From positions 3,938,947 to 4,002,946 of the forward strand of contig OZ244722.1 of the NCBI GenBank assembly GCA_965219245.1: DNA of 64,000 nt, in the 5' to 3' direction. Numbering within the stretch: the first letter of the stretch is position 1; the number at the start of each line of letters is the position of its first letter. Origin of the DNA: Dehalococcoidia bacterium (GTDB lineage: Bacteria > Chloroflexota > Dehalococcoidia > Lucifugimonadales > VXLM01). The notes under the pieces are model-generated. The model was not told the DNA's origin. It searched no databases and was given only the letters and a program-made list of their open reading frames with translations. The translations under genes were made by a program, and so were the position numbers. This document shows positions 3,104 through 60,262 of this stretch, one piece after another.

Positions 3104-3347
3104 TTGTACTCTCCCGCGTCTGCGTTTCTCGGTTCAAAGCTTACCACAGAGGCCCTCACGCCCTCAGGTGATAGAATCGAGTTACTCATACCTGTGTAGA
3201 CACACTGCCTTGGTCAAGAGAGCTTCAAACCCCGTTGTGTCCGAGCGCTTTTTCGCCAGCCCGGCGCGCGTTCGGAGATTGCTTGACGAGATAGATGATG
3301 GTAAGCCCGACAGCGGGACACTGTATCTTCAGCCTTGGAGCGGCAGA

Positions 3348-3998
3348 ATGCCCCCCTCTCTGAGTCTCTCCCTCGCGGGGGCAGAGATGGGAAGCTCTGC
3401 GGCAAAGGACCAGATTCGCAAGTTCTCGAACGCGGTTCCTGAATCAGAGACCGGAGCGGCTGTGTTTTGGACCGATCGCAAGGCATTGGCTATTCTTCCA
3501 CCCTTCCCTATCGACGAAGACCGGTTCACCGATGGAATCGACGGATCCGATCTTGAAGAGGTGTACAAGCGAGACGTAACCGTCGGAGTCGTGCTCCTGA
3601 GAATGGGCAGGTACGCGATAGGCGTGGTACGAGGCGATAAGCTGCTCGCCTCCAAGACCGATACTCGCCACGTCAAGAATCGCCACAGGGCGGGCGGGTC
3701 CTCCCAGCGGAGATTCATGCGGAGTCGTGACCGGTTGATCCGAGAGCTGTACGACGCGGGGTGCGAAGTCACCCGGCGAATCTTCGAGCCGCACCTCGAA
3801 TCCATAGACTGCGTGCTAACCGGTGGAGAACGCCAGACGATCAACGGCTTTCTCAAGCGGTGCGAGTTCCTCGAAAGGTCGAAATTGCCGGTGATGAAGC
3901 GGCTGCTGGCTGTCGAGCGGCCAAGCCACAAGGCGTTGGAAAGCATCCACCGCGAAGTCTGGAAGAGTCGCGTCCTCGTCTTCGACAGGGCCGAATAA
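3348..3998 (+). CDS. Vms1/ANKZF1-like (acVLRF1 family) peptidyl-tRNA hydrolase
   Basis: The motif HRAGGSSQRRFMRSRDR matches the GGxxQ-xRF release-factor-like loop of VLRF1 domains. GGAG lies 7 nt upstream of the ATG at 3348. The longer ORF from 3021 overlaps rpiB and is rejected; an alternative GTG at 3237 cannot be excluded. Confidence 0.6.
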   Translation: MPPSLSLSLAGAEMGSSAAKDQIRKFSNAVPESETGAAVFWTDRKALAILPPFPIDEDRFTDGIDGSDLEEVYKRDVTVGVVLLRMGRYAIGVVRGDKLLASKTDTRHVKNRHRAGGSSQRRFMRSRDRLIRELYDAGCEVTRRIFEPHLESIDCVLTGGERQTINGFLKRCEFLERSKLPVMKRLLAVERPSHKALESIHREVWKSRVLVFDRAE

Positions 3999-16675: not shown

Positions 16676-16734
16676 CGGGTGGGGCAGGAGTCGTCCCTGT
16701 TCTGCCTATGATAAGAACTCGTGAACCGAGTCTT

Positions 16735-16892
16735 AGAGGGTGTTTGCGAAGTCCTCTCACGATGTTCCTACTGTCATACGCAACCCTCAAGATTCGATAA
16801 TCTCTCCCCCGTTCGACGGGGGAGAGATACAGAGAGGGGGGGTCTCTTGCCTAAAGACCTGGCGCGAATCCGCACCTTTGCAAACACCCTCT
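16735..16892. repeat. 158-bp MITE-like unit bounded by 17-bp inverted repeats
   Basis: AGAGGGTGTTTGCGAAG (16735-16751) against CTTTGCAAACACCCTCT (16876-16892), complementary at 16 of 17 positions. The unit encloses triplex-hairpin repeat copy A. Confidence 0.45.
16800..16840 (-). repeat. three-arm Py/Pu hairpin repeat, copy A (reverse orientation)
   Basis: ATCTCTCCCCCGTTCGACGGGGGAGAGATACAGAGAGGGGG is the reverse complement of the consensus CCCCCTCTCTGTATCTCTCCCCCG-N-CGGGGGAGAGAT seen at 24190 and 45424. Confidence 0.8.
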
Positions 16893-17084
16893 TACTGTGG
16901 ACGAAACTTTCGAGCCCTTGGCTCACTAGCAGCATTTGGGCGGTTCCGCGGCGCCCCTGCCGGCTGAATGTCTCTGAGGATCGGCTGCCTTCACGAGGGT
17001 ACAGAGTTTCGACCCGAAATAGCATTGTCTCACCGAGAGGATAGGCGTAAACTCCGTGCAATATTTGAAGATGGAGGTTCGCAG

Positions 17085-21349: not shown

Positions 21350-21804
21350 CTAGGTCACCTCCATGCTCTGTCACCGGAAATGTATCACAGGTCGCGGAAC
21401 CCCGGAATGACCGTGAACCGGTCGAGACCGTCAGGAACAACGTCACTACCGAATAGACTTCCTGTGAGAAAGTTCACGTGCCGCTCAGAATCTTGATCAG
21501 CCGGATACAGAGCAGACATATCTACCCAGCGGACCAGTAGGAGAAAGCCACGCCAATGTTCGTGATCGGGGTAGAGAATCCCTCTCCAGAGCTGGGCGTC
21601 TGCTTAAAGCGTTGGGGGCAGCCCCATGTCAACCACGCTGGAAGAAAAGGTCTTGTTGACCGGACTCAGCTCATCGACGGGGCAGTAGCCAACTTTCCGT
21701 GAGATACACGATTCTCACGCCGAGTGACATTCCCTTGCCAGGATGGCCAAGACATCCTTCTACTCAGTCCGGTCCTGACTGCCGTTAAGAACTGGTGAGC
21801 CGCT

Positions 21805-21823
21805 TCTTACTGTAGACAGAACC
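21805..21823 (+). repeat. 19-mer TCTTACTGTAGACAGAACC, copy 1
   Basis: Perfect inverted match to 23762-23780. A diverged 21/26 copy lies at 16890-16915. Confidence 0.8.
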
Positions 21824-23761: not shown

Positions 23762-23780
23762 GGTTCTGTCTACAGTAAGA
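23762..23780 (-). repeat. 19-mer TCTTACTGTAGACAGAACC, copy 2, 2 nt downstream of the tRNA-Lys 3' end
   Basis: The plus strand reads GGTTCTGTCTACAGTAAGA, the exact reverse complement of 21805-21823. Confidence 0.8.
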
Positions 23781-23782
23781 GG

Positions 23783-23859
<77 letters not shown>

Positions 23860-24189: not shown

Positions 24190-24226
24190 CCCCCTCTCTG
24201 TATCTCTCCCCCGGCGGGGGAGAGAT
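24190..24226 (+). repeat. three-arm Py/Pu hairpin repeat, copy B
   Basis: CCCCCTCTCTGTATCTCTCCCCCGGCGGGGGAGAGAT, followed by two degenerate Py/Pu hairpins up to about 24300. Confidence 0.8.
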
Positions 24227-24403
24227 TAGGCGGGGTGATCTTCCCCGGTTGGGGAGAGGCTTGGGCAGGGTGATCTCCCCGGCGGGCGGGCTGGGGTAGA
24301 CAAACGGGAATTGTAGCCCTTTTCCGGGTCCCGTGTTCCTGACATTCCGGGAGGAGCGAGGATTCCAAAGTCAAACACCCAAAGACCGGTCAGCCGGCGC
24401 CTA

Positions 24404-25610
24404 GTACCGGTTCCATATGTATTTGACAAATATAAGAAGTAGGTTAGTATTGTGTATGATCCTATAGGGAGGACATACGAAGACATGCCTGCTCTCAAGT
24501 ACAAGGTGGAGTTGAACGAGTCGGAACGGACACATCTCAAAGAGATCGCGAGTCGTGGGGAGACTTCTGTCCGTAAGGTCAAGCGAGCGCTGGTGTTGCT
24601 TAAGGCAGACGAAGGTCTGATCGACCGTGACATCGCCAGCGGTCTATTGATAAGCACATCCACGGTGGGACGTGTGCGCACGCGGTTTGTGAAGGAGGGA
24701 CTCGACTGTGCGATCAATGAACGCACGCGACCGGGACAGAAGCGCAAGTTGGACGGCAGACAGGAAGCGCATCTGATAGCCATCGCGTGCAGCGATGCAC
24801 CCGAAGGACACGCGGACTGGACGCTGCAACTAATTGCCGACAAGGCGGTGGCGATGGGGTTTGCCGAGAGCATCTCCCTCGAGACGGTGCGCCAGATACT
24901 AAAAAAAACGAACTCAAACCGTGGAAGAAGAAGGAGTGGTGCATCCCCGAGGTGAGCGGAGAGTTCGTGGCTCGAATGGAGGACGTGCTGGACCTGTACC
25001 ATCAAGACTACGACCCGGACCATCCCGTGGTCTGCTTCGACGAGACATCCAAGCAGTTGGTGGCTGATAAGAGGCCCGCTATCAGGGCCAAGCCGGGTCG
25101 GGTGGAACGATATGACTACGAGTACAAGCGAAACGGGACACGAAACCTGTTCATGTTCTGTGAGCCGAAAGCTGGTTGGAGGCATGTCGAGGTGACCGAG
25201 CAACGCACTGCTGTGGACTTCGCTCATCAGATGAGATGGCTGGTTGATGAGGCATATCCTCACACCGAGACGATACGGCTGGTGCTGGACAATCTCAACA
25301 CTCACAAGCTGGGTTCGTTGTACGATGCCTTCGAGCCAGTCGAAGCGCGGCGCATCGCCAAACGCCTGGAGTTTCACTACACACCCCTACACGGCAGTTG
25401 GCTGAATATGGCTGAGATAGAGTTGAGCGTCTTGAGCAACCAGTGTCTCAACCGTCGAATCAGCGACGAGGTGGTACTGAAACGAGAGGTCTTGGCGCTG
25501 GAACGTGAACGCAATGAGGCTGTCGCCGTCATTGACTGGCGCTTCTCCACTCAGGACGCTCGCACTAAACTTCAACATATCTATCCATCATATTCAGATT
25601 GAACCGGTAC
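24404..25610 (+). mobile_element. IS630/Tc1-mariner family insertion sequence (1207 bp) flanked by TA
   Basis: Terminal inverted repeats GTACCGGTTCCATATGTATTTGAC (left) and GTACCGGTTCAATCTGAATATGAT (right, reverse complement) match at about 19 of 24 positions. TA dinucleotides at 24402-24403 and 25611-25612. Confidence 0.85.
24452..25602 (+). CDS. IS630-family DDE transposase, two overlapping frames joined by a -1 shift at an A8 run
   Basis: ORF1 carries the HTH region and ends just after ...VRQILKK. The -1 frame continues NELKPWKKKEWCIPE...DETSKQ...LDNLNTH...NMAEIE (DDE). The slippery A AAA AAA lies at 24901-24908. Confidence 0.8.
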
Positions 25611-25612
25611 TA

Positions 25613-25638
25613 GTACCGCTTCCATATGATTTTGGTAG
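25613..25638 (+). repeat. solo left-end-like IS630 terminal repeat abutting the IS right end
   Basis: GTACCGCTTCCATATGATTTTGG resembles the left TIR at 24404 and follows directly after the right TIR and TA. Confidence 0.45.
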
Positions 25639-25920
25639 CTTACTCAAAGCACCCTCACCCCCGTATCAAGTACGGGGCAGGCTCTAGCCCTCTCCCACGA
25701 CGGGAGAGGGGATAAATCGGCATCTTCCTGATCCTTATATTCAAGTTGACTGAGTACTAGCCTGTATTGTGACCAATGGGGGAATTCAGCGTAAGAATTC
25801 TCCAGACCGGCGTTATGACACCATAGATTCTTCGACTCTGCCCTGCTTCGCACAGAATGACAGTGACGGGGTTGCTTTCTCAATCAATGGAGAATGTCAA
25901 ATGCCTATCCCTGTCAGGCC

Positions 25921-26379
25921 TCACCGCCGGAGTGAGTTTGGGTTGTATGTGCGGGGGGCATCGGGATGGCGGGCGTGGTAGTCGTCTTCCTTTTCGAAGT
26001 TGGAGATGAGGCGGTTGAGGCGTTCGACCACCTTACGGTTTCCTTCGGCGTCGGCTACTTTGAGGCCATAGGTCATTACGTCGCGGGATGCGCGGGCGCG
26101 TTCTTCGGGGTCGTCAGACTCGAGACGTTCGGAGAGGACGTGGGCGGCTTTGAGCATGAGGGCCCTGATCTCGGCAGTGGCGAGGGCGGCGGCCTCCTCC
26201 CGCTGTCGCTCATATAGTTCTCTAAAAGCGGGTTCGTTCAACCAGCGATGAAAGGTCATACGTGAGATGCCCGCGTTCTCGGCGGCTTCGGTCTGTGACT
26301 TGGAGGAGGTCAAGTATGGGAGCGCAAGGAGCTGTCTCTCAGAGAGTTCGCCCGAATCTTCTGTAACATCTTGTAACAT
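25921..26379 (-). CDS. helix-turn-helix protein (phage/mobile-element-like regulator or small-terminase-like), paralog 1
   Basis: LSERQLLALPYL...TEAAENAGISRMTFHRWLNEP is an HTH. Start assigned to MLQDVTEDS (ATG 26379, GGAG 11 nt upstream), because a TTGACA-N17-TATCCT promoter lies inside the longer track ORF. Confidence 0.6.
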   Translation of the reverse strand: MLQDVTEDSGELSERQLLALPYLTSSKSQTEAAENAGISRMTFHRWLNEPAFRELYERQREEAAALATAEIRALMLKAAHVLSERLESDDPEERARASRDVMTYGLKVADAEGNRKVVERLNRLISNFEKEDDYHARHPDAPRTYNPNSLRR

Positions 26380-26462: not shown

Positions 26463-26964
26463 GTCGGGGTTTAGGGAACAGGGCACGAAGGTGCGGGTAC
26501 GAGGGCGTTTCGCTTGTATGATTTCGTGGACGTGACACGGTACGGTGTTTTGCATGGCCGGAACGGTTGCAGTCGTTCTTGGCGTCGGAGATGAGTTGGA
26601 TGAGGCGTTTGTGAGCCTCGCGTTCTCTTTCGTCGTCAGCCCTCTCGAGGTTGGAGACGGTCACGTATCGGAAGGTGGGGGTGGGTCTTCGTGGACCGTC
26701 GGACACGAGGCGTTCGGCGAGGGCGATGAAGGACTTGAGCATGAGGACTCTGATCTCGTCAATGGAGATTTCGGCGGCCTCGTCCCATTGTCGTTCGTAT
26801 ACGTCTCTAACGGTGGGGTCGTTGAACCAGAGGGACATGGTCTCGCGTGAGACTCCCAAGTTCTCCGCGGCTTCGGTGAATATCATGGCGGCGGACAGAT
26901 AGGGGACGGCGCGCAGCTGTCGCTCAGAGAGTTCGGACGAGTCTTCTGTAACATCTTGTAACAT
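26452..26964 (-). CDS. helix-turn-helix protein, paralog 2
   Basis: LSERQLRAVPYL...TEAAENLGVSRETMSLWFNDP. The leader and first roughly 30 codons are near-identical in nucleotide sequence to paralog 1. Start at ATG 26964. Confidence 0.6.
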   Translation of the reverse strand: MLQDVTEDSSELSERQLRAVPYLSAAMIFTEAAENLGVSRETMSLWFNDPTVRDVYERQWDEAAEISIDEIRVLMLKSFIALAERLVSDGPRRPTPTFRYVTVSNLERADDEREREAHKRLIQLISDAKNDCNRSGHAKHRTVSRPRNHTSETPSYPHLRALFPKPRLDM

Positions 26965-36735: not shown

Positions 36736-38094
36736 ATGAGCGCTGAGACACCCGTGGAGATCGGCGAAGACCGACAGCTCTTCGTCGACGACTCTTGGAT
36801 CGCCGATTCCACGGGCGTCGAGCGCGTCCTCCACTCCCCGACCCGACAGAGCGTGGCTCTGGAACCGGAACATCCATGGGAGGTTGGCGGGCTTTCCTAT
36901 CTCATCGCCTTTCCCGATCAGGGCAAGTTTCGAGGGTGGTACCGCGCCGACCCCCAGCTGCAGGACACCGACTACAACTCGATCACGTGCTACGCCGAGA
37001 GCGAAGACGGTATTAGCTGGACGAAACCCACTCTCGGTCTCATCGAGTTCAACGGCTCGAAGGACAACAACATCGTATGGATGGAGCCGGGCATCAACCT
37101 GGCGCCGTTCAAGGACGCGAATCCCGACGCAAAGCCGGAGGAGCAGTACAAGGCATTCATCCGCGTCAAGAGGGTAATGCTGGCGCTCTCCTCTCCCGAC
37201 GGGCTTCGGTGGCAGATGATGCGAGAGGAACCGATCCTGACGGAATACCCCTTTGATACGCTCAATATTCCGTTTTGGGACACGTGGCGAAGGGAATATG
37301 TGGGGTACTTCCGCGGTGTTGCGGGTCAAGGCACGAGCGACTTCTTCACGGGCGTTCGCTGGATTCGCCGCGGCACGTCGACGGACTTCCTGAACTGGAC
37401 GCCGCTCGAGAACATCGACTGCGGTGACACTCCCTGGGAGCACTTCTACACGAACTCGTGCATCCAGTACCACCGAGCGCCGGGGACGTATCTCATGTTC
37501 CCGTCGCGGTTCGTCCACGACCGGTCGCCCGACCCGGACTGGACCTACGACACGGGCGTGAGCGACATCGTCCTTATGTCCAGCCGAGACGGGTTCAACT
37601 TCGACCGGAGCTTCATGGAGGCGTTCATCCGTCCGGGGCCGGACTTCAACAACTGGCACGACCGGGGCATCTACTTCGAGGTGGGCATCCTGCACACGTC
37701 GGATAAAGAGATGTCGATGTACGGTATGGAGAATGCCCACCTGCCGACGCAGCGCATCCGCCGCTATACACTCAGGACGGACGGTTTCGTGTCGGTGAAG
37801 TCAGGCTTTCGGGGCGGCGAGTTTACGACGCGGCCACTCACCTTCAGCGGAAGCGCGCTCGAACTGAACTACTCGACCTCCGCGGTTGGCTCGATCAAGG
37901 TCGAGATCCAGGATGCGGACGGGCACGCCATTCCCGGCTTTGGTCTCGACACCTTTCCCGAGAAGTTCGGCGACGAGATCGGCGGCAAAGTGTCGTGGAA
38001 CCGAGGCGGAGACGTGAGCGAGCTTGCCGGAACGCCGGTCCGTCTACGGTTCGTCCTCAAGGACGCGGACATCTTCGCCTTCAAGTTCGGATGA
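36736..38094 (+). CDS. GH32/GH43-like beta-propeller protein with C-terminal beta-sandwich (uncharacterised family), paralog 1
   Basis: RQLFVDD, YAESEDGISW, NIVW and the C-terminal TLRTDGFVS...LRFVLKDADIFAFKF pattern. About 50-65% identical by eye to 39026-40474. Confidence 0.6.
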   Translation: MSAETPVEIGEDRQLFVDDSWIADSTGVERVLHSPTRQSVALEPEHPWEVGGLSYLIAFPDQGKFRGWYRADPQLQDTDYNSITCYAESEDGISWTKPTLGLIEFNGSKDNNIVWMEPGINLAPFKDANPDAKPEEQYKAFIRVKRVMLALSSPDGLRWQMMREEPILTEYPFDTLNIPFWDTWRREYVGYFRGVAGQGTSDFFTGVRWIRRGTSTDFLNWTPLENIDCGDTPWEHFYTNSCIQYHRAPGTYLMFPSRFVHDRSPDPDWTYDTGVSDIVLMSSRDGFNFDRSFMEAFIRPGPDFNNWHDRGIYFEVGILHTSDKEMSMYGMENAHLPTQRIRRYTLRTDGFVSVKSGFRGGEFTTRPLTFSGSALELNYSTSAVGSIKVEIQDADGHAIPGFGLDTFPEKFGDEIGGKVSWNRGGDVSELAGTPVRLRFVLKDADIFAFKFG

Positions 38095-39025: not shown

Positions 39026-40474
39026 ATGCAATTTGGACGAAACACAAGCCCAAATGGCCAATCGCACTTCGCCGCAGGACTAAACAACGTGCAGAACCCC
39101 ACCGACATCGGCACCAATCGACAGCTCTTCCTCGACGACCAGATCATCGACACCATGGGTGGCGCGAAACGGATCATGCACTCGCCCACTCGACGAGAAA
39201 CTGTCCTCGTGGGGGACAAGCCGTGGGACGAGGCCAGCATCTCGTACATGTCGATCATCCGCGACGGAGACTTGTATCGCGGCTACTACCGATGCTATCA
39301 GCAAGGCCCTGACCGGGCGAAGAGCCCACGCTACACCGCCTATGCGGAGAGTACGGACGGCATCCACTGGGAGAAGCCGAGCCTTGGGGTGTACGAATTC
39401 AACGGATCTAGGGACAACAACCTCATCTGGTTGGGTCCGGGAGCGAACTTCTGCGCATTCATCGACAACAACCCCGCCGAGCCTCCCGAACGCCGGTACA
39501 AAGCCGTCGTGCGGACGGGACACGCCGAATTGGAGCCACTAGGCCTGCCCGGCCCCTGCGTCTTCGCGCTGTCGTCAGCGGACGGCATCAGCTGGGGCCT
39601 GATGCAAGATGCGCCAATTCTGACTGAAAGCCCATTCGACTCATTCAACATCGCATTCTGGGACGAACGGATCGGTCAATACGTGATCTTCACAAGAGGC
39701 GTCGGTGGGTCCGACGGCCCGTTCAAGGGTGGCGTTCGCTGGATCAGACGCGCTACCTCCGACGACTTCCTCAACTGGAGCGGCCTCGAGCTGATCGACA
39801 CCGGCGAAGTGCCGTCCGAGCACCTGTACACCAACGCCTGCGTCCCGTACGACCGGTCGCCGGGCACCTACCTGATGTTCCCTTCCCGTCTCGTCCTCGA
39901 ACACACGCCCGACCCCGATTGGCCGAACGGACCAGGGGTCAATGACATCGTCTTTATGAGCAGCCAGGACGGAATCACATGGGACCGCACATTCAAGGAG
40001 GCGTTCATCCGTCCGGGTCTCGATAAGGAAAACTGGCACGAGCGGGGGATATACTTCGAGCGGGGCATATTCCAGACCTCGGAGGACACCCTGAGCATGT
40101 ACTGCTCCGACCACTGGCGCTACCCCACCACCCGCATATCGCGGTACACTCTGCGAACGGACGGTTTCGTCTCGGTAAACGCCCGCTATCGTGGTGGGGA
40201 GTTCTTCACGAAGCCGCTAGTATTCGAGGGGAGCGAACTGGAGATCAACTACTCGACATCGGCAGTGGGTTCGGTGCAGGTCGAAATTCAGGACGATCAG
40301 GGCCGGCCACAACAGGGATTTGCTCTAGCCGACTCTCCGGAGCAGTACGGCGACAAGATCGACCACCGAGTTTCATGGTCGGGCGGACCCGACGTTAGCT
40401 CGTTCGCAGGAAGGCCGGCGCGTCTGAGGTTCGTCCTGAAAGACGCGGACCTGTACGCATTCAAATTCAACTAG
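39026..40474 (+). CDS. GH32/GH43-like beta-propeller protein, paralog 2
   Basis: Same block structure as 36736-38094 (RQLFLDD, YAESTDGIHW, TLRTDGFVS, LRFVLKDADLYAFKF). Confidence 0.6.
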   Translation: MQFGRNTSPNGQSHFAAGLNNVQNPTDIGTNRQLFLDDQIIDTMGGAKRIMHSPTRRETVLVGDKPWDEASISYMSIIRDGDLYRGYYRCYQQGPDRAKSPRYTAYAESTDGIHWEKPSLGVYEFNGSRDNNLIWLGPGANFCAFIDNNPAEPPERRYKAVVRTGHAELEPLGLPGPCVFALSSADGISWGLMQDAPILTESPFDSFNIAFWDERIGQYVIFTRGVGGSDGPFKGGVRWIRRATSDDFLNWSGLELIDTGEVPSEHLYTNACVPYDRSPGTYLMFPSRLVLEHTPDPDWPNGPGVNDIVFMSSQDGITWDRTFKEAFIRPGLDKENWHERGIYFERGIFQTSEDTLSMYCSDHWRYPTTRISRYTLRTDGFVSVNARYRGGEFFTKPLVFEGSELEINYSTSAVGSVQVEIQDDQGRPQQGFALADSPEQYGDKIDHRVSWSGGPDVSSFAGRPARLRFVLKDADLYAFKFN

Positions 40475-44121: not shown

Positions 44122-44160
44122 TTGCCGTTCATTGCATGGTTGCAGTTTCCGTACTTTTAA

Positions 44161-45413: not shown

Positions 45414-45423
45414 ACGGGAAACG

Positions 45424-45464
45424 CCCCCTCTCTGTATCTCTCCCCCGTTGAACGGGGGAGAGAT
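45424..45464 (+). repeat. three-arm Py/Pu hairpin repeat, copy C
   Basis: CCCCCTCTCTGTATCTCTCCCCCGTTGAACGGGGGAGAGAT, located between convergent genes. Confidence 0.8.
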
Positions 45465-45481
45465 GGTAAGCAGAGTTGGCG

Positions 45482-59883: not shown

Positions 59884-60262
59884 GATTGTTTTCGATAAGT
59901 CACATAAACGATAATAACGGCCACAACTCTTTTCGCTTCCGCTAATAAGGAACGGCGTGGCAGCGGCCTCTGAGCGAAAATGCCGGCCTCATGGCCGTCC
60001 GGCGGAAGGGATTGTTTTCGTAAAGTTACATAAACGATAATAACGGCCATGACTCTTTTCGCTTGCGGTAACAAGGAACGGCGTGGCAGCAGCCTCTGAA
60101 CGAAAACGTCAGCCTTATGGCCGTCCGGTGAAAAGACTTGTTTTCGATAAGTCGCATAAATGATAATAACGGCCATGATTCTTTTCGCTTCCGCTAATAG
60201 GGAATGGCGTGACAACAGCCTCTGAACGAAAACGCCAGCCTCATGGCCGTCCGGTGAACTGT
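59884..60262. repeat. three tandem copies of a 126-bp unit (about 85% identity by eye)
   Basis: Unit starts at 59884, 60010 and about 60136. Each contains TGTTTTCG..CATAAACGATAATAACGGCCA..CGAAAA..ATGGCCGTCCGG. Confidence 0.85.

Follow-up and report, generated by a model that had tools for sequence, protein, structure and literature searches.

A GA-type intrastrand-triplex-motif family of the BoxC/PIT/TM_ECO class appears in Dehalococcoidia, partly as MITE cargo

Repeats of three arms, with a hairpin joined to a mirror image of one of its arms, have been known since the 1990s, and the novelty claimed in an initial annotation of the DNA analysed here, which knew of no described bacterial repeat family of this design, therefore falls. 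Elements of the BoxC/PIT/TM_ECO class have exactly this layout: a Y arm, a loop of 3–6 nt, an R arm, a 3-nt loop and a third arm (PMC4666352). Hoyne and Maher (2000, 2002) described the BoxC repeats of E. coli anew as PIT elements (for potential intrastrand triplex), and in Holder et al. 2015 they became TM_ECO, with the consensus CCCTCNCCC-N3-6-GGGNGAGGG-N3-GGGNGAGGG (PMC4666352). The G-rich strand of TM_ECO gives a class II purine-motif triplex and the C-rich strand a pyrimidine-motif triplex; oligonucleotides form a very stable triplex (CD, NMR, Tm 70–82 °C), addition of the complementary strand gives a duplex with no triplex signal, and DMS footprinting in vivo did not detect the triplex (PMC4666352). 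Work cited in the same paper describes PIT elements as blocking DNA polymerase in vitro and as lacking promoter or terminator activity in E. coli. TM_ECO occurs between genes without a preferred orientation, at loci that vary more among strains than control loci do; Holder et al. 2015 found no link of TM_ECO to mobile elements and left the origin of the motifs unanswered (PMC4666352).

Several other described systems share part of what we report here. Like the present cores, the REP/BIME sequences and REPINs of Proteobacteria are short GC-rich extragenic palindromes in mosaic and tandem arrangements, enriched at gene 3′ ends and varying in presence between strains, but REPs have no conserved mirror third arm, whereas our cores lack a GTAG head, and no RAYT gene was found near them. 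H-DNA mirror repeats are matched by arms 1 and 2, which form a perfect mirror repeat; the differences are an extra inverted-repeat arm in our cores, which lets one strand fold alone, and a tract much shorter than that of classical H-DNA. Rickettsia palindromic elements are repeats that insert in frame, as one of our copies (copy D) has done. MITEs with structured cargo resemble the carrier of copy A, which ends in inverted repeats, is flanked by a target duplication and is missing from the orthologous site of relatives, although the 40-nt core has neither inverted repeats nor a duplication of its own.

Three-arm cores in the window

Within the window (the whole 64-kb stretch of Dehalococcoidia DNA analysed), the C-rich strand of copies A, B and C reads CCCCCTCTCT-GTA-TCTCTCCCCC-loop-GGGGGAGAGA-T, exactly so in all three (Table 1), and the G-rich strand of the core is 5′-TCTCTCCCCCGGCGGGGGAGAGATACAGAGAGGGGG-3′. 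The initial annotation had recognized this shared layout at 16800, 24190 and 45424, where it is present as described, with a hairpin loop that it put at 5–8 nt and that is in fact 3 nt (copy B) or 7 nt (copies A and C). It had counted three intergenic copies; copy A is not free-standing but lies inside a 156-bp MITE, and a fourth, degenerate and intragenic copy (copy D) had been overlooked. Copy D carries about two to three mismatches, with one pair broken and one wobble pair.

Table 1 Features of the three-arm copies and associated elements in the 64-kb window.
Feature	Position	Strand	Length	Composition
Copy A core	16801-16840	(-)		three exact 10-nt arms; on the + strand, Y arm (16801-16810) and R arm (16818-16827) joined by the loop GTTCGAC (16811-16817), then TAC as turn (16828-16830) and a purine third arm (16831-16840)
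MITE carrying copy A	16736-16891		156 bp	16-nt terminal inverted repeats GAGGGTGTTTGCRAAG at 16736-16751 and 16876-16891
Target duplication of copy-A MITE	16733-16735 and 16892-16894			TTA (up to TCTTA)
Copy B core	24190-24226	(+)		arm 1 24190-24199, GTA, arm 2 24203-24212, loop GGC, arm 3 24216-24225, closing T
Copy B tail	24227-24300	(+)		two degenerate hairpin units (ATCTTCCCCGGTTGGGGAGAG, ATCTCCCCGGCGGGCGGG), terminal GGGCTGGGGTAG module
Copy C core	45424-45464	(+)		between convergent genes; arm 1 45424-45433, GTA, arm 2 45437-45446, loop GTTGAAC, arm 3 45454-45463, closing T
Copy D, decayed	3352-3388	(+)		arm 1 3352-3361, GAG, arm 2 TCTCTCCCTC 3365-3374, GCG, arm 3 GGGGCAGAGA 3378-3387
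IS630-family insertion sequence	24401-25613			two overlapping ORFs (HTH_32, then DDE_3); 26-nt inverted repeats CTAGTACCGGTTCCATATG...; adjoins copy B
MITE with inverted repeats of the adjacent IS630-family element	25611-25760			bears a BoxC/TM_ECO-type motif
Split TM_ECO-type motif in the 25611-25760 MITE	25652-25710			CCCTCACCC ... CCCTCTCCC-ACGAC-GGGAGAGGG

The 23-nt string of arm 1, turn and arm 2 occurred three times in the window and in none of 100 dinucleotide shuffles, and the same counts were obtained for the hairpin pattern. A scan of the 64 kb for intrastrand triplex motifs (Y arm, R arm, mirror arm) returned copies A, B and C only, with no hits in 50 shuffles. When folded as single-stranded DNA, either strand of these copies gave a hairpin of 11–13 bp (about -15 kcal/mol, z = -3 to -6) in which the third arm remained unpaired, and copy D folded no better than shuffles. 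An Rfam gathering scan of the window brought only tRNAs to threshold, with no match to the cores, and a scan of four related loci at E ≤ 1 gave nothing overlapping the cores.

Class II/IV motifs are defined in the ITxF scheme by a Y arm, a complementary R arm and a third arm that mirrors the R arm, consecutively placed, the third arm setting G against G and either A or T against A (Holder et al. 2015). Copies A, B and C have 10-nt arms with no mismatches, inside the ITxF stem limits of 6–15 nt and at most one mismatch. The turn is 3 nt in every copy, and the hairpin loop is inside the ITxF limit of 1–6 nt in copy B and 1 nt beyond it in copies A and C; a 7-nt loop fits the limit of 0–10 nt used by Hoyne et al., and its outer G-C pairs can shorten it.

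The likeness to BoxC/PIT/TM_ECO extends well beyond block order, to G/C-rich arms of 9–10 nt, a second loop of 3 nt and the triplex classes, which are II for the G-rich strand and III/IV for the C-rich one (IV in the orientation found here). Both groups have many near-identical intergenic copies with arms more conserved than loops, show no orientation bias and no linked gene class, and are gained and lost among close relatives; copy D, which is intragenic, is the exception here to a multi-copy, intergenic and orientation-free distribution. The differences lie in sequence (GGGGGAGAGA here, GGGNGAGGG in TM_ECO), in host (Chloroflexota rather than Proteobacteria), in the occurrence of cores here within MITEs with inverted repeats and target duplications and once in frame in a gene, and in the fold, a triplex seen in vitro for TM_ECO and a predicted one here. 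The TM_ECO consensus had no match in the 64-kb window and 20 matches in the related loci fetched, which included the same Dehalococcoidia MAGs. With the layout of TM_ECO and no match to its consensus in the window, the cores are a new sequence family of a described class: a GA-type intrastrand-triplex-motif family appears to exist in Dehalococcoidia (Chloroflexota) alongside canonical TM_ECO-type copies.

Conservation of the third arm in related genomes

The initial annotation would have given up its three-arm design had other copies conserved the hairpin while arm 1 varied freely. A scan for the hairpin alone (TCTCTCCCCC-N3-9-GGGGGAGAGA, one genome per species) returned at least 116 loci. A third arm was scored when at least 8 of 10 positions were triplex-compatible with the mirror of the purine arm (G against G, A or T against A), a threshold that about 1% of random flanks pass. 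Among the matches listed, such an arm was present on exactly one side in 85 of 130 hairpins (perfect in 64), and nearly all listed hairpins in Dehalococcoidia and other Chloroflexota MAGs had one, with a GTA or GTG turn. One Anaerolineae MAG has the same hairpin tip within a long palindrome and no arm 1, so the hairpin is able to exist alone. Across nine copies found without requiring an exact hairpin, arms 1, 2 and 3 had 2, 6 and 9 mismatches, respectively, and thus no excess in arm 1.

Among the matches listed for this stem, mirror copies outnumbered direct copies 54 to 2, which rules out a direct-repeat (slippage) origin of arm 1, and for other asymmetric stems in the same loci the counts were 8 and 0. 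These other three-arm families pair GGGGGAAGGA with AGGAAGGGGG, GGGGGAGGAA with AAGG[T/A]GGGGG, GGGGGAGGGA with CCCCCTCCCT (on the other strand) and GGGAGAGGG with GGGTGAGGG; such family-to-family co-variation is in part ascertained by motif. When third arms were permuted among stem classes, matches at 7 or more of 8 positions were found for 0.7–0.8 of arms with their own class and 0.25–0.4 with others, a weakly discriminating result with many ties, the stem classes being shifted forms of each other. At the orthologous site of copy D, the core is perfect in one relative (L127), and in another (L128) two compensatory pair changes preserve the hairpin; position 7 differs between the two relatives in each of the three arms, (C,C,G) having become (T,T,A).

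Arm 1 is thus as conserved as the hairpin arms, is the mirror image that the initial annotation took it to be and tracks the stem in other families, which argues that the three-arm geometry, and not the hairpin alone, is maintained, as judged from these sequence comparisons.

Carriage, sites and genomic context

The 156-bp carrier of copy A has the terminal inverted repeats, target duplication and empty orthologous sites expected of a MITE: the sites are empty in two relatives (TCTTA|CTGTGG in L117 and L118), and copies 94–96% identical occur at non-syntenic places in MAG OZ240223.1. A second MITE family, 158 bp in L117, has inverted repeats of about 21 nt (TAACTGTT.AG..TC.GTGAG), an 8-bp duplication and the same core, which is present in 13 of 13 copies; the corresponding site in the window is empty at 21646/21647. 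A third family derives from the IS630-family element of the window and has a TM_ECO-type core; it is filled in L086 and empty near window position 44148. The window's own MITE with IS630-type ends has copies 92–97% identical in L011, L059, L071 and L093, and the turn of its motif is interrupted by a nested 27-nt hairpin insertion. Cores are therefore central in at least three MITE families (two GA-type, one IS630-derived and TM_ECO-type), with clean filled and empty sites in all three. Neither the 40-nt core itself nor copies B and C showed these features of a MITE (synteny with L117 ends before copy B). A core common to unrelated MITE families is a module, not a transposon, and the suggestion in the initial annotation that three intergenic copies were selected in place has to yield at least for copy A, which came as MITE cargo.

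By its nearest DNA matches, the window belongs to the chromosome of an uncultured member of the Dehalococcoidia. The region from 5.6 to 23.8 kb of the window is 83–96% identical to a metagenome contig (L117), and the surroundings of copy C are 88–91% identical to MAG OZ240223.1. Copy B heads a short array of degenerate hairpins closed by a GGGCTG..GGGGTAG module, and the same layout of core, hairpin array and terminal module occurs in L027, L058, L070 and L093. The core of copy C is conserved in the two closest relatives (L086 and L121), and in its place the spacer of more distant relatives (L122–L125) has a canonical terminator-like hairpin, AAACCCCGG...CCGGGGTTT; the last GNAT codons differ too, so the segment was replaced. 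Copy D is a 12-codon in-frame segment, translated PPSLSLSLAGAE, in a variable linker of an acVLRF1/Vms1-like protein (gene about 3237–3998; acVLRF1 is listed in the gene content of the window as an ‘Actinobacteria/Chloroflexi’ release-factor-like protein). Homologues conserve the N-terminal VSERFFASPARVRRLL that precedes this segment, and the segment itself holds an intact core in L127, is decayed in the window and is absent, as a 12-residue gap, from one relative and all distant homologues. The acVLRF1-like gene of OZ220720.1 is without these 12 codons. This in-frame insertion has no inverted repeats.

The surroundings of these sites are themselves variable. In the spacer 3′ of the M19 dipeptidase gene (window 16676 onward), which holds copy A and is a rearrangement hotspot, gene order differs in three of four relatives (L117–L120), the dipeptidase gene being followed by an IS-type DDE transposase in L118 and by different genes in L119 and L120. 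A dispersed motif of about 45 nt (..CCGNTTCTTACTGTAGACAGAAC..) is found at 21800–21822 (+), at 23763–23785 (-) and, split by the MITE, at 16720–16735 and 16895–16920; the MITE of copy A had inserted into the TTA of one such motif, and in L118 and L120 the motif is found again after the dipeptidase gene. Synteny with L117 stops exactly at a tRNA-Lys gene (window about 23792; region 23783–23859), with copy B just beyond. Past this tRNA gene lies an IS66 transposase in L117 and, in the window, an UnbV_ASPIC fragment ORF of 98 aa together with copy B and the IS630 element; the region looks like a tRNA-linked variable region. In L122–L125 the convergent GNAT/GNAT-cytidylate-kinase spacer (45414–45481) has two hairpins, one of which is bidirectional and terminator-like (AAACCCCGGATCG...CGATCCGGGGTTT).

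For 130 ORFs lying no more than 1.8 kb from Chloroflexota copies, a Pfam scan showed enrichment of no family and no transposase: the 25 most frequent families are ordinary metabolic ones, and a linked transposase or RAYT gene is not among them. Across about 40 loci of 8 kb, the combination of a GTAG head with a Y1 (RAYT) gene was not found, the turn being GTA or GTG and then T, and variable. By crude ORF calling, 17 cores lie between tandem, 10 between convergent and 4 between divergent genes, and relative to tandem genes the purine version is in the mRNA sense more often (11:6). The same ORF calling placed 11 copies ‘inside ORFs’, mostly spurious long ORFs across repeat-rich spacers, and copy D alone was verified as intragenic. 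Scans for intrinsic (Rho-independent) terminators and promoters at the three sites did not call the hairpins, the sequence after the hairpin lacks a T tail in both orientations of copies A, B and C, and the three-arm pattern was absent from viral contigs.

The C-rich strand of the core tends to fall on the locally G-rich strand (25 concordant and 8 discordant; about 21:7 without same-locus duplicates), a count made over 29 loci in four large MAG assemblies of Dehalococcoidia, one of them a 3.3-Mb contig and the others complete chromosomes, against local skew with no mapped origin. This tendency could reflect replication-strand selection.

Other small repeats share these genomes, among them a GTAG-headed palindrome (GTAGGGGCGGGTTTCAAACCCGCCC), CCCCGTA..TACGGGG hairpins and an CCCTTCGACAGGCTCAGGGCGAACG module, and they are combined in BIME-like mosaics (L081 5400–5560; L027 5680–5740; L119 11300–11400). 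The window also has a 126-nt tandem repeat in three copies 85–87% identical (59884–60261) and two pairs of paralogous segments in neighbouring genes, each 68–70% identical (37351–37650 and 39731–40030; 25988–26287 and 26573–26872).

Folding strand and competing explanations

The geometry proposed in the initial annotation is correct for an intrastrand triplex, which would belong to class IV if the C-rich strand folds and to class II if the G-rich strand does; it is the emphasis on the pyrimidine (Hoogsteen, C+) motif that our data do not favor. That motif would need five adjacent protonated cytosines, and adjacent C+.G-C triplets are disfavoured close to neutral pH. T stands opposite A in the third arm of several lineages (AGAGTGGGGG, AGTGAGGGG, GGGTGAGGG, AAGGTGGGGG), the substitutions opposite A being T and not G, and T.A-T fits the antiparallel purine motif. 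A interruptions in the pyrimidine arm of related families (CCCCCACTCT, CCCTCACCC) break the pyrimidine-motif triplet and fit T.A-T on the purine strand. The same adjacent-C+ objection has been raised for TM_ECO, in a paper that treats T.A-T as a legitimate triplet of the antiparallel purine motif and states that the purine motif does not form in RNA (PMC4666352); pyrimidine-motif intrastrand triplexes can form in RNA, according to Hoyne et al. 2000 as cited there. The five adjacent C+, the T opposite A and the absence of the purine motif from RNA together point to G-rich single-stranded DNA as the likeliest folded species, and a purine-strand DNA triplex is the more plausible candidate when set beside a pyrimidine or RNA triplex.

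We consider it reasonably probable that the cores are a Dehalococcoidia family of BoxC/PIT/TM type, essentially selfish or neutral and spread partly as MITE cargo, whose fold is somehow required for persistence or spread, and it is this requirement that would keep all three arms. Copies are gained and lost between close relatives, and cores occur in MITEs, free-standing, in arrays and once in frame within a gene. When the G-rich strand becomes single-stranded, in replication, repair or transposition, the 11–13 bp hairpin would form and the 3′ purine arm could fold back antiparallel to the purine arm, giving G.G-C and A.A-T (or T.A-T) reverse-Hoogsteen triplets and a compact triplex of class II; as part of duplex DNA, the element would mostly be ordinary B-form. 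These folding steps draw on in-vitro work on TM_ECO of E. coli and on purine-motif triplet rules. Local side effects might include polymerase pausing, instability and rearrangement of the neighbouring DNA and, where transcripts have their 3′ ends, a stable hairpin; a dedicated regulatory role is less likely. The steps from a geometry that is kept to a triplex that forms, and from there to a triplex that does something, are ones that we infer. A counterpoint is that the core of copy C sits exactly where relatives have a terminator-like hairpin, which hints at a role at the transcript level.

That counterpoint is the best argument for a plain REP-like or transcript 3′-end hairpin, a terminator or stabiliser whose arm 1 is a conserved flank inherited by copying, with no structural role. 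The location of copies after stop codons or between convergent genes agrees with such a hairpin, as do the tandem arrays, which repeat the hairpin unit and have arm 1 once, and the Anaerolineae palindrome with the same tip and no arm 1. We nevertheless regard it as unlikely, though it stands first among the alternatives, given that families with different stems have their own matching mirror arm (54:2 and 8:0 over direct copies), that all three arms changed at one orthologous site (copy D), that a T tail is absent in either orientation, that the cores have no orientation bias relative to genes and that PIT elements lack terminator activity in E. coli in the work cited in PMC4666352. Another transcript-level possibility is that a bacterial RNA triple helix may protect transcript 3′ ends: in a C-rich transcript, arm 1 would Hoogsteen-pair with the hairpin and protect or terminate the end. 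The five adjacent C+.G-C triplets that this would need near neutral pH, the A interruptions that break the pyrimidine motif, the greater frequency of the purine version in the mRNA sense for tandem genes (11:6) and the transcription of copy A as the purine version, a motif that does not form in RNA, make it very doubtful, despite the correct class IV geometry, the position of copies at gene 3′ ends and the RNA triplexes of Hoyne et al. 2000 cited in PMC4666352.

At the DNA level, the cores may owe their spread to the three-stranded fold itself as a cis-acting feature, a reading that we hold to be rather unlikely. A single-stranded triplex or hairpin clip would then stall replication or be captured by recombination, the module of 36–40 nt would be copied into new sites, including the centres of unrelated MITEs and coding linkers, and MITEs that acquired it would do better; if true, this would supply both a mechanism and an origin for BoxC/TM repeats, the question left open by Holder et al. 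2015. Less likely again is a protein recognition site, at which a RAYT/IS200-type single-strand DNA transposase or a host factor reads the hairpin with its adjacent purine/pyrimidine tract and the mirror symmetry is due to the mode of binding and not to a triplex. A mirror repeat offers a dimeric protein no dyad symmetry, the design recurs with different sequences in distant phyla, and neither a transposase nor any other family is enriched in the 130 ORFs within 1.8 kb of copies; the REP/BIME-like behaviour (mosaic contexts, arrays, gain and loss), the GTAG-headed REP-like palindromes in the same genomes and the in-frame insertion of copy D without inverted repeats would fit it. The least probable reading is duplex H-DNA, in which the 23-bp homopurine-homopyrimidine mirror repeat of arms 1 and 2, perfect over 10 + 3 + 10 nt, would extrude a triplex under negative supercoiling and serve as a topological or recombination signal, with arm 3 adding cruciform potential only. 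Instability has been linked to H-DNA (PMC4666352), and copies do lie at synteny breaks and in variable regions, yet H-DNA needs no inverted-repeat partner and arm 3 is as conserved as the other arms, a tract of this length is short to be extruded at neutral pH and duplex TM_ECO gave no triplex signal (PMC4666352).

The favoured account, a largely selfish or neutral family of BoxC/PIT/TM type, extends the intrastrand-triplex-motif class to uncultured Dehalococcoidia. A third arm that follows its stem from family to family and between phyla, and in one case at orthologous sites, is comparative evidence for a three-arm constraint, and the carriage of cores by MITEs in Dehalococcoidia genomes makes the question of origin left by the 2015 study testable.
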